From Eledone cirrhosa (lineage: Eukaryota), in assembly GCA_964016885.1 (NCBI GenBank), contig OZ024766.1, positions 124,001 through 188,000 of the forward strand: DNA of 64,000 bases, read 5' to 3'. The notes beneath the pieces are model-generated. The model had not been told where the DNA came from, ran no database searches, and saw only the letters and a list, made by a program, of their open reading frames with translations. Below are positions 817 through 1,133 of the stretch, one piece after another. Both the position numbers and the translations under genes were made by a program. Position 1 is the stretch's first letter. The number at the start of each line of letters is the position of its first letter.

Positions 817-1133
817 ATAGTTATATAATAAACAACATAAGGCAATTATTCCATTTACCAGTTGGTTTCTTAAAAGCAAAAAAATGTTGCTTTCAATCAT
901 AAGAATGAAAGAATCCTGGTCTATTTATCGATATTGGTTTCTATTTATTGATATTGAATCCAATATCAATAAATAGACCAGGATTCTTTCATTCTGATGA
1001 TTGAAAGCAAATTTTTTTGCTTTAAGAACCACTGGTAAATGGAATAATTGCCTTATGTTGTTTATTATATAACTATTAAGCTCTGTTACCTACATAGAGC
1101 ACTCTTTTTTCTGGACTTTTCCGACGGAATTAC

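Follow-up and report, generated by a model that had tools for sequence, protein, structure and literature searches.

A putative bulged hairpin, present in two copies, adjoins both ends of Hydra-clade Penelope-like elements in Eledone cirrhosa

Fold-back insertions in the window

The window analyzed in this work is a 64-kb stretch (64,000 nucleotides) of contig OZ024766.1 from the 3.0-Gb, microsatellite-rich genome of Eledone cirrhosa. Masked self-BLAST revealed eight fold-back palindromes within it. Seven of these abut a microsatellite at one end and run on at the opposite end as a tail of 60 to 107 nt, and the arms of the seven tailed fold-backs carry hammerhead-like cores or the 3′ halves of such cores. 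An inverted pLTR with a tail is the anatomy reported for Penelope-like elements (PLEs) (PMC8557442, PMC3846280). Both the window and genome copies display the hallmarks of PLEs, namely, partial tandems and pLTRs, an inverted 5′-truncated copy, and a one-sided tail. PLEs are the closest relatives of telomerase RT.

The features discussed below are as follows. SL1 denotes the hairpin motif at the boundary between arm and tail, and SL2 denotes its second copy beyond the far end of the tail.

817..1076, no strand: family A fold-back, an inverted 5′-truncated pLTR pair with its left end on (TA)n
994-1006, plus strand: minimal hammerhead-like core of family A, within the fold-back
1080..1100, plus strand: family A SL1 (GCTC, TGT, loop, ACA, bulge TA, GAGC, then AC-TC), beginning 3 nt past the modal short end
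1077..1136, plus strand: family A tail, the start of the 5′ leader, from short end to long end
1213..1523, minus strand: family B insertion (fold-back 1320-1523, tail 1319-1213)
1293..1316, minus strand: family B SL1 (GTTC/GAAC, upper stem TGCA/TGCA, bulge TT)
11138..11158, minus strand: decayed family A fragment comprising little besides SL1, flanked by (TA)n and (TG)n; absent from an earlier, sequence-only reading of the window
20088..20107, minus strand: family C SL1 (ACTC/GAGT, upper stem CAA/TTG, bulge TT)
20112-20525, minus strand: family C fold-back, with a tail to ~20026; bodies with SL2 and a Hydra ORF lie elsewhere
20906..20924, minus strand: family D SL1 (ACTC/GAGT, upper stem TGC/GTA with one G-U, bulge TT)
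20944-21049, minus strand: family D fold-back, with a hammerhead-like core at 20991
21148..21171, minus strand: family E SL1 (ACTC/GAGT, upper stem TAC/GTA, bulge TT); fold-back 21177-21291, tail 21176-21100
27000..27018, minus strand: SL1 of a second family D copy; fold-back 27025-27152
62468..62630, minus strand: Neptune-like PLE (control, approximate limits), end of the pLTR with its 56-nt tail, lacking the SL motif
63035..63058, minus strand: SL1 of a second family E copy; fold-back 63064-63177, tail 63063-62987

Arms of other genomic family A copies end at the identical point (query 116-119, equivalent to window 1075-1078). By pattern, CTGANGA..GAAA hammerhead cores occur in families A and D and in most of the metagenomic loci, while families C and E have only 3′ halves; at the gathering score, Rfam returned no hammerhead match in the 12 loci scanned. 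The family E and C arms (21177-21291, 63064-63177, and 20112-20525) retain only the 3′ half of the core, which places their 5′ truncation inside the ribozyme. A separate family E-like fold-back at 604-720 has the short end on both sides and carries neither tail nor SL1. Its left flank was considered as a tail and rejected, as that flank is unique among the loci compared.

Anatomy of the motif

The sequence-only reading had listed five stem-loop strings at the start of the tails, and each was recovered where it had been placed and on the strand given, at seven places in total. These correspond to five families: A (1080), B (1316), C (20107), D (20924 and 27018), and E (21171 and 63058). As had been noticed, the stems lie just beyond the arm, and all seven start 3 to 16 nt past the point where the inverted arm of a microsatellite-flanked fold-back stops.

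That reading described stems that keep pairing around variable loops. The pairing is indeed kept, while the supposed loop contains a 2-nt bulge on the 3′ side and an upper stem, in which most of the covariation resides. In order, the motif consists of RYTC, the 5′ strand of the upper stem, a loop that varies, the strand complementary to the first, two bulged nucleotides (TT, TA, or TC), GARY, and usually RC-YY. The lower stem is thus a 4-bp RYTC/GARY helix, followed by the 3′ bulge and the covarying upper stem, which across the window families reads TGT/ACA, TGCA/TGCA, CAA/TTG, TGC/GTA, and TAC/GTA. The lower stem, for which covariation had been claimed, is mostly conserved in sequence, with occasional double changes: TCTC/GAGA (four instances, from two elements), GCAC/GTGC, and ATTC/GAAT.

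Frequency of the motif relative to chance

An equal frequency of such 4- to 5-bp stems at random positions had been named as a refuting condition. Among 3000 random non-microsatellite positions, 55% have the start of a plain 4-bp stem (8- to 20-nt loop) within 16 nt, 22% that of a plain 5-bp stem, and 2.3% that of an RYTC/GARY stem. Since plain stems are this common, the case as originally put was weak; the full motif, on the other hand, occurs far above chance.

To define tail clusters, 120 coordinate-picked 10-kb stretches and the window were used, giving 162 fold-backs, of which 74 had a clean short end and a tail; these formed 35 clusters. The full descriptor (lower stem, T-H bulge, and an upper stem of at least 3 bp) was matched by 6 of the 30 clusters that contain no window copy, against a shuffled mean of 0.025 (maximum of 1 in 200). 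For lower stem and bulge alone, the count was 10 of 30 against 0.84 (maximum of 4). Reverse-complemented tails gave 0 (full descriptor) and 3 (lower stem and bulge), and arms gave 0. This test was not fully blind, as some tails had been seen before the descriptor was fixed.

For a blind test, 93 loci from other organisms were fetched by means of an alignment of the ORFs. Of these, the 43 in which the match extended to the ORF start were taken (excluding L377, and with L372 and L380 lacking upstream DNA), and removal of 4 redundant sequences and 1 that was too short left 38 leaders. At least three upper pairs were present in 20 of the 38, compared to 1.35 after shuffling, 4 after reverse complementation, and 0 within ORFs, and at least one upper pair was present in 29 (7.1 shuffled). 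Under a relaxed descriptor, two or more copies of the motif were found in 17 of the 38 leaders, compared to 0.62 in shuffled sequence. Nine leaders lacked a descriptor match, two of which have the TCTC/GAGA variant.

The sequence-only reading had recognized no described motif, and our searches agree with it. Rfam gave 0 matches at the gathering score over the motif in the 12 loci bearing SL1 or SL2; in a scan of the window, the best 150 of 709 matches were sub-gathering and miRNA-type, driven by repeats or palindromes. Searches of the openly accessible literature yielded no description of the motif.

Covariation and folding

In order to avoid selecting for pairing, covariation was assessed with anchors chosen by sequence alone (GAGCRCY and the nearest upstream GCTC). 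This gave 44 anchors, 38 of them with a partner, from about two dozen elements. In the 2-nt bulge register, position 1 of the upper stem pairs in 38/38 cases (30 C-G and 8 T-A), compared to 31.7 with the 3′ letters shuffled; position 2 pairs in 28/38 (16.2 shuffled) and position 3 in 21/29 (12.0 shuffled). Each of these positions has a P value of ≤0.001 by a statistic that ignores kinship, and SL1 and SL2 of one element are nonindependent. Position 4 was not significant in this set (9/17 versus 6.5), and bulge registers 0, 1, and 3 gave no excess of pairing. In these previously unseen metagenomic relatives, the upper pairs covary.

Among the upper pairs of the same set there are six G-U and no A-C combinations, which favors a sense-strand RNA as the folded molecule. 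These counts bear on a reading in which the motif acts as DNA, either as an endonuclease site or as a single-stranded sense-DNA hairpin during resolution of an intermediate, with adjacent cutting producing the ends. Such a reading draws on the near-palindromic GAGYRCTY, on the good sequence conservation of the 3′ half of the motif, and on the endonuclease of Drosophila virilis Penelope, whose action on plasmid DNA depended on the tail sequence (as cited in PMC11167929). We nevertheless consider it decidedly unlikely: upper-stem covariation in a single bulge register is unexpected for duplex recognition, tolerance of G-U without A-C argues against folding of the cDNA strand, and the palindrome is broken in the GAACACCT and GAGTTCTT variants. 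A self-complementary RNA dimer formed through GAGUACUC was also considered and dropped, as variants break the self-complementarity.

Thermodynamic folding of the motif is weak, with z-scores from −1.9 to +0.7, so that a stabilizing partner is probably needed. The bulged form was the minimum free energy (MFE) structure in three of nine folds (window B, window C, and full-length E). In two folds, family A forms the stem without the bulge, the MFE for SL1 also permitting this 7-bp register, and in four folds the window D and E copies favor other pairings. In many SL2 copies the upper stem is reduced to 1 to 2 bp. The motif, which is conserved in the 5′ leaders of Hydra-clade elements, likely takes the form of a bulged hairpin in the RNA.

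Clade assignment and distribution

The motif had been ascribed to unrelated families. While the DNA does differ among families, those that could be traced to an ORF (A, C, and E) fall within one clade, Hydra. The family A tail in locus L004 continues into SL2, an ATG, and a decayed Hydra-type ORF with RMRWK, DKT, and YRDD. Family E occurs as 3.54-kb tandem units (3542-3543 bp at full length), with SL2 and an intact ORF of 718 amino acids containing YRDD and a C-terminal VIYQC..YIG. Family C bodies lead to an ORF similar to that of family E in 5 of 20 loci. Two further families retrieved by ORF searches, H1 and H2, behave like A, C, and E. RWR is found in E, C, and H1, RWK in A and H2, and DKT in E, C, H1, and A. 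In an alignment of the three ORFs with a complete C terminus, a CxCX5C linker is present, as are CxxC and CxH motifs flanking a conserved E and N. Hydra endonucleases lack a CCHH motif; by eye, one cysteine lies within the GIY-YIG core here. A single ORF thus combines RT and GIY-YIG endonuclease, as in EN+ PLEs, and the motif-bearing families show an insertion bias for (TA)n. Pfam gave no match at an E value of 0.1 for the two Hydra ORFs; 2186 homologs were found.

These properties agree with the published description of the Hydra clade (Craig et al. 2021, PMC8557442), in which RW(K/R), DKT, CxCX5C, a C-terminal GIY-YIG domain, hammerhead cores, and (TA)n targeting are likewise found. By these defining motifs, we assign families A, C, and E, together with H1 and H2, to the Hydra clade. 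The placement of families B and D, the former noncoding, would follow from the shared motif. Naiad, a first guess based on TA targeting, was rejected in view of linked ORFs with a C-terminal endonuclease and Hydra motifs. Two departures from the description concern size. Hydra elements are given as generally shorter than 3 kb, whereas units here can exceed that length (family E, above), and the 3′ region of H1 alone is longer than 1.5 kb. Unlike the 30- to 40-bp tail described for Hydra (PMC8557442), tails here span ~60 to 176 nt and are bounded by twin hairpins. The terms "hairpin" and "stem-loop" are absent from the main text of that paper.

Among the consensi in its File S7, inspected by eye, the motif is visible in Hydra-2_Amil and Hydra-2_Ajap and twice before the ATG in Hydra-1_Ajap; it is degenerate in Hydra-1_Amil and Hydra-1_Crog and present only loosely in Hydra-1_Obim. 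The consensi with the motif come from coral and sea cucumber (PMC8557442). Searching the available supplement with six 9-nt anchors gave at least four matches in Hydra consensi and at least three elsewhere, the latter internal-looking. Several Hydra PLE ORFs (L370-L385) are located in prokaryotic genome bins, most likely through contamination by the host animal.

A Neptune-like PLE family served as a control. Its tail runs into the start of a YVDD/CX4CxxC ORF (L159/L160/L163), and 320 nt around its ends contained no motif anchor (one family checked). The lower stem and bulge are likewise missing in 20 of the 30 nonwindow tail clusters. Because of both absences, the motif is not PLE-wide. The sequence-only suggestion of a conserved cis element for RT binding or boundary definition is supported to the extent of a conserved, structured element at the arm/tail boundary of PLE insertions, for which either role is plausible. 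The Neptune-like family (window 62468-62630 and 27192-27304; L151-L165) is young and abundant, with an open frame of ~1280 amino acids and copies 98 to 99% alike. As such, it constitutes a natural control and a place to seek a different start signal.

A second copy and the ends of the elements

The strongest functional clue, absent from the sequence-only reading, is a second copy of the motif immediately beyond the distal end of the tail. SL2 (typically GCTC-C..G-TH-GAGC) starts a few bases past the long end and before the ATG, and both copies lie between the pLTR and the start codon. SL2 was present in all six families (A, B, C, E, H1, and H2) of the genome that yielded a run-on body, with that of family A resting on one complete locus, L004. 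For families E and C, the pattern used to search for bodies presupposed the first four letters of SL2, while the remainder of SL2 and the ORF emerged unasked. The corresponding search for family D gave four pattern matches in the genome, none of which is a leader with SL2.

SL2 usually lies 15 to 70 nt upstream of the ATG. This position could suit a role of the hairpins in controlling translation or transcription of the ORF, with their link to the element ends being incidental. We regard this as highly improbable: family B, a 544-nt noncoding tandem unit whose longest ATG ORF is 38 amino acids, keeps both SL1 and SL2, and incidental placement would not set both classes of end beside both copies in independent lineages.

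Short ends fall just 5′ of SL1, and tail (long) ends fall just 5′ of SL2. Since the ends adjoin the 5′ sides of the two copies, the tail equals the spacing between them. The SL1-SL2 spacings in the six families are 66, 116, 92, 78, 138, and 176 nt, and tail lengths agree with these within ~5 nt. When every alignment end in the coordinate-picked DNA was counted, 135 of 162 were at −15 to +4 of SL1 or SL2 (17% expected): 66 at SL1, 69 at SL2, and 27 elsewhere, including 1 run-on. Among microsatellite-bounded ends, 181 of 194 lie at −12 to −1 of a hairpin (86 at SL1, 95 at SL2); this count leaves out 128 other ends and 40 run-ons, and some of the loci had been retrieved with queries that contained the tail. 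For other organisms, 14 determinable ends were obtained from 37 loci after exclusion of those that were too short (8), lacked a repeat (7), were cut at a contig end (7), or ran into the ORF (1). Of the 14, 12 are 2 to 11 nt 5′ of a hairpin, compared to 1.1 expected.

In all six families, the modal end is on a TA or TAT matching the (TA)n target, and the 2- to 11-nt offset is blurred by TA microhomology. These end positions could in principle be set by UA microhomology in AU-rich, single-stranded RNA alone, with the hairpins being general signals for protein binding or packaging (cis preference and RNP assembly); the AU-rich stretch before the hairpins might be favored simply because it is unpaired. 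That seems to us very unlikely, given that other TA/TAT sites within the 216- to 326-nt references are rarely used, that the ends are concentrated in two 12-nt zones, and that both ends track the hairpins over spacings of 66 to 176 nt.

By the comparisons presented above, the motif is a real, clade-specific, predicted RNA motif that is doubled and tied to both ends of the element. Internally deleted family E tandem mini-units of ~150 to 260 nt (L208, L210, and L234) retain SL1, SL2, and part of the pLTR. Most family B long ends (L263-L292) have (TC)n before (TA)n, as if a terminal TCTC had been expanded by slippage at initiation.

Proposed role in initiation of reverse transcription

How PLEs choose a start site and how head-to-head insertions with a one-sided tail are made is the question addressed here. 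Craig et al. called for an in vitro PLE system (PMC8557442), and the two start sites mapped by Frangieh et al. belong to a single element, no general signal being given in the accessible account (PMC11167929). Because inserted copies end a few bases before either copy of the hairpin, the hairpin likely marks the start point for the copying enzyme. We think it probable that each copy anchors the RT-endonuclease of the element and that reverse transcription begins a few bases upstream. Under this proposal, the ends of Hydra elements are taken as RT start sites. The element protein would contact the hairpin at its C-G/bulge/GAGYRC face, the nicked (TA)n strand would pair with the closest UA(U) on the upstream side, and cDNA synthesis would start internally. 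Priming on both target strands, one per hairpin and possibly by a protein dimer, would give the head-to-head fold-back with its one-sided tail. Noncoding units with both hairpins would be mobilized in trans. Against an anchor, 27 of the 162 coordinate-picked ends fall elsewhere, and the offset of 2 to 11 nt is variable.

More tentatively, and with somewhat more doubt than belief, two RT active sites may be loaded on one RNA via the two hairpin copies, each priming on one nicked (TA)n strand upstream. If so, fold-back and tail would be direct products of two-anchor initiation, and the hairpin would be a portable module that sets the RT start inside any RNA.

Alternatively, the hairpins might direct formation of RNA 3′ ends upstream, by termination or by cleavage with a host nuclease or the element protein, followed by ordinary TPRT from those ends. 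This predicts the identical end pattern and a sense-strand RNA signature, and end positions alone cannot separate cleavage from internal initiation; PLE RNAs are, moreover, thought to be cut by hammerheads (PMC4209133). We judge it unlikely, though less so than the other alternatives discussed in this work. PAc, a Poseidon-clade PLE of Anolis, initiates internally on RNA that has not been processed and can do without hammerhead cleavage in vitro (PMC11167929); in addition, a 2- to 11-nt offset onto TA/TAT would suit primer annealing more than a cut at a fixed distance.

A covarying, doubled motif of 20 to 30 nt beside both ends in many lineages yields one definite rule: tail length equals hairpin spacing. 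The motif also provides a DNA marker with which to find and delimit Hydra elements and their noncoding dependants, and possibly a route to programming internal RT initiation. Family E forms head-to-tail arrays of 3.5-kb units with open Hydra ORFs (G000:C1:91474001-91484000 [L236] and C1:437200347-437210965), which could readily supply material for in vitro work.

Relation to known systems

A parallel is offered by PAc, in which reverse transcription begins internally at two sites delimiting the tail and depends on RNA lying 3′ of those sites (Frangieh et al. 2024, PMC11167929). As with the start sites proposed here, those of PAc bound the tail, and a stem-loop is involved; for PAc, AlphaFold2 predicts a dimer (PMC11167929). 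The two differ in that the PAc start has been reported to lie in an AC-rich loop belonging to the ORF, whereas the ends here are 5′ of the hairpin. Furthermore, the accessible text describes no repeated motif for PAc, and the RNA in its Fig. S1B, by eye, lacks RYTC..TH-GARY (PMC11167929).

The hairpin also resembles the RT-recognized stem-loops in the 3′ tails of stringent LINEs (eel UnaL2, for example) in combining a small stem and an internal loop near the start of the cDNA (PMC1636434, PMC4176376). The UnaL2 stem-loop is needed for mobilization and is common to nonautonomous partners (PMC1636434, PMC4176376), to which the hairpin here may be likened. Unlike the hairpin, which is doubled and located 3′ of each proposed start, the LINE stem-loop is single, is 5′ of the start, and is copied, and it belongs to another class of retroelement. 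Family B, for its part, is similar to metazoan non-LTR retrozymes of the PLE type, being a noncoding tandem unit of ~544 nt (bioRxiv 10.64898/2026.07.22.740005). In contrast to our results for family B, the words "stem," "hairpin," "tail," and "initiation" do not occur in the available text of that preprint, and no RT cis signal is given there.

Other features of the window

Apart from PLEs, the window contains, at ~4880-6826 (plus strand) and between microsatellites, an ORF of a LINE-type reverse transcriptase with a YADD-like FADD motif. Tandem repeats are located at 39141-40317 (period of ~110 nt), 33654-34279 (~45 to 90 nt), 12443-13101 (~72 nt), and 63551-64000 (~88 nt). Near the window, and as would suit a cephalopod host, two loci (L056 and L057) carry exons that, from their motifs, are presumably haemocyanin/tyrosinase-like.
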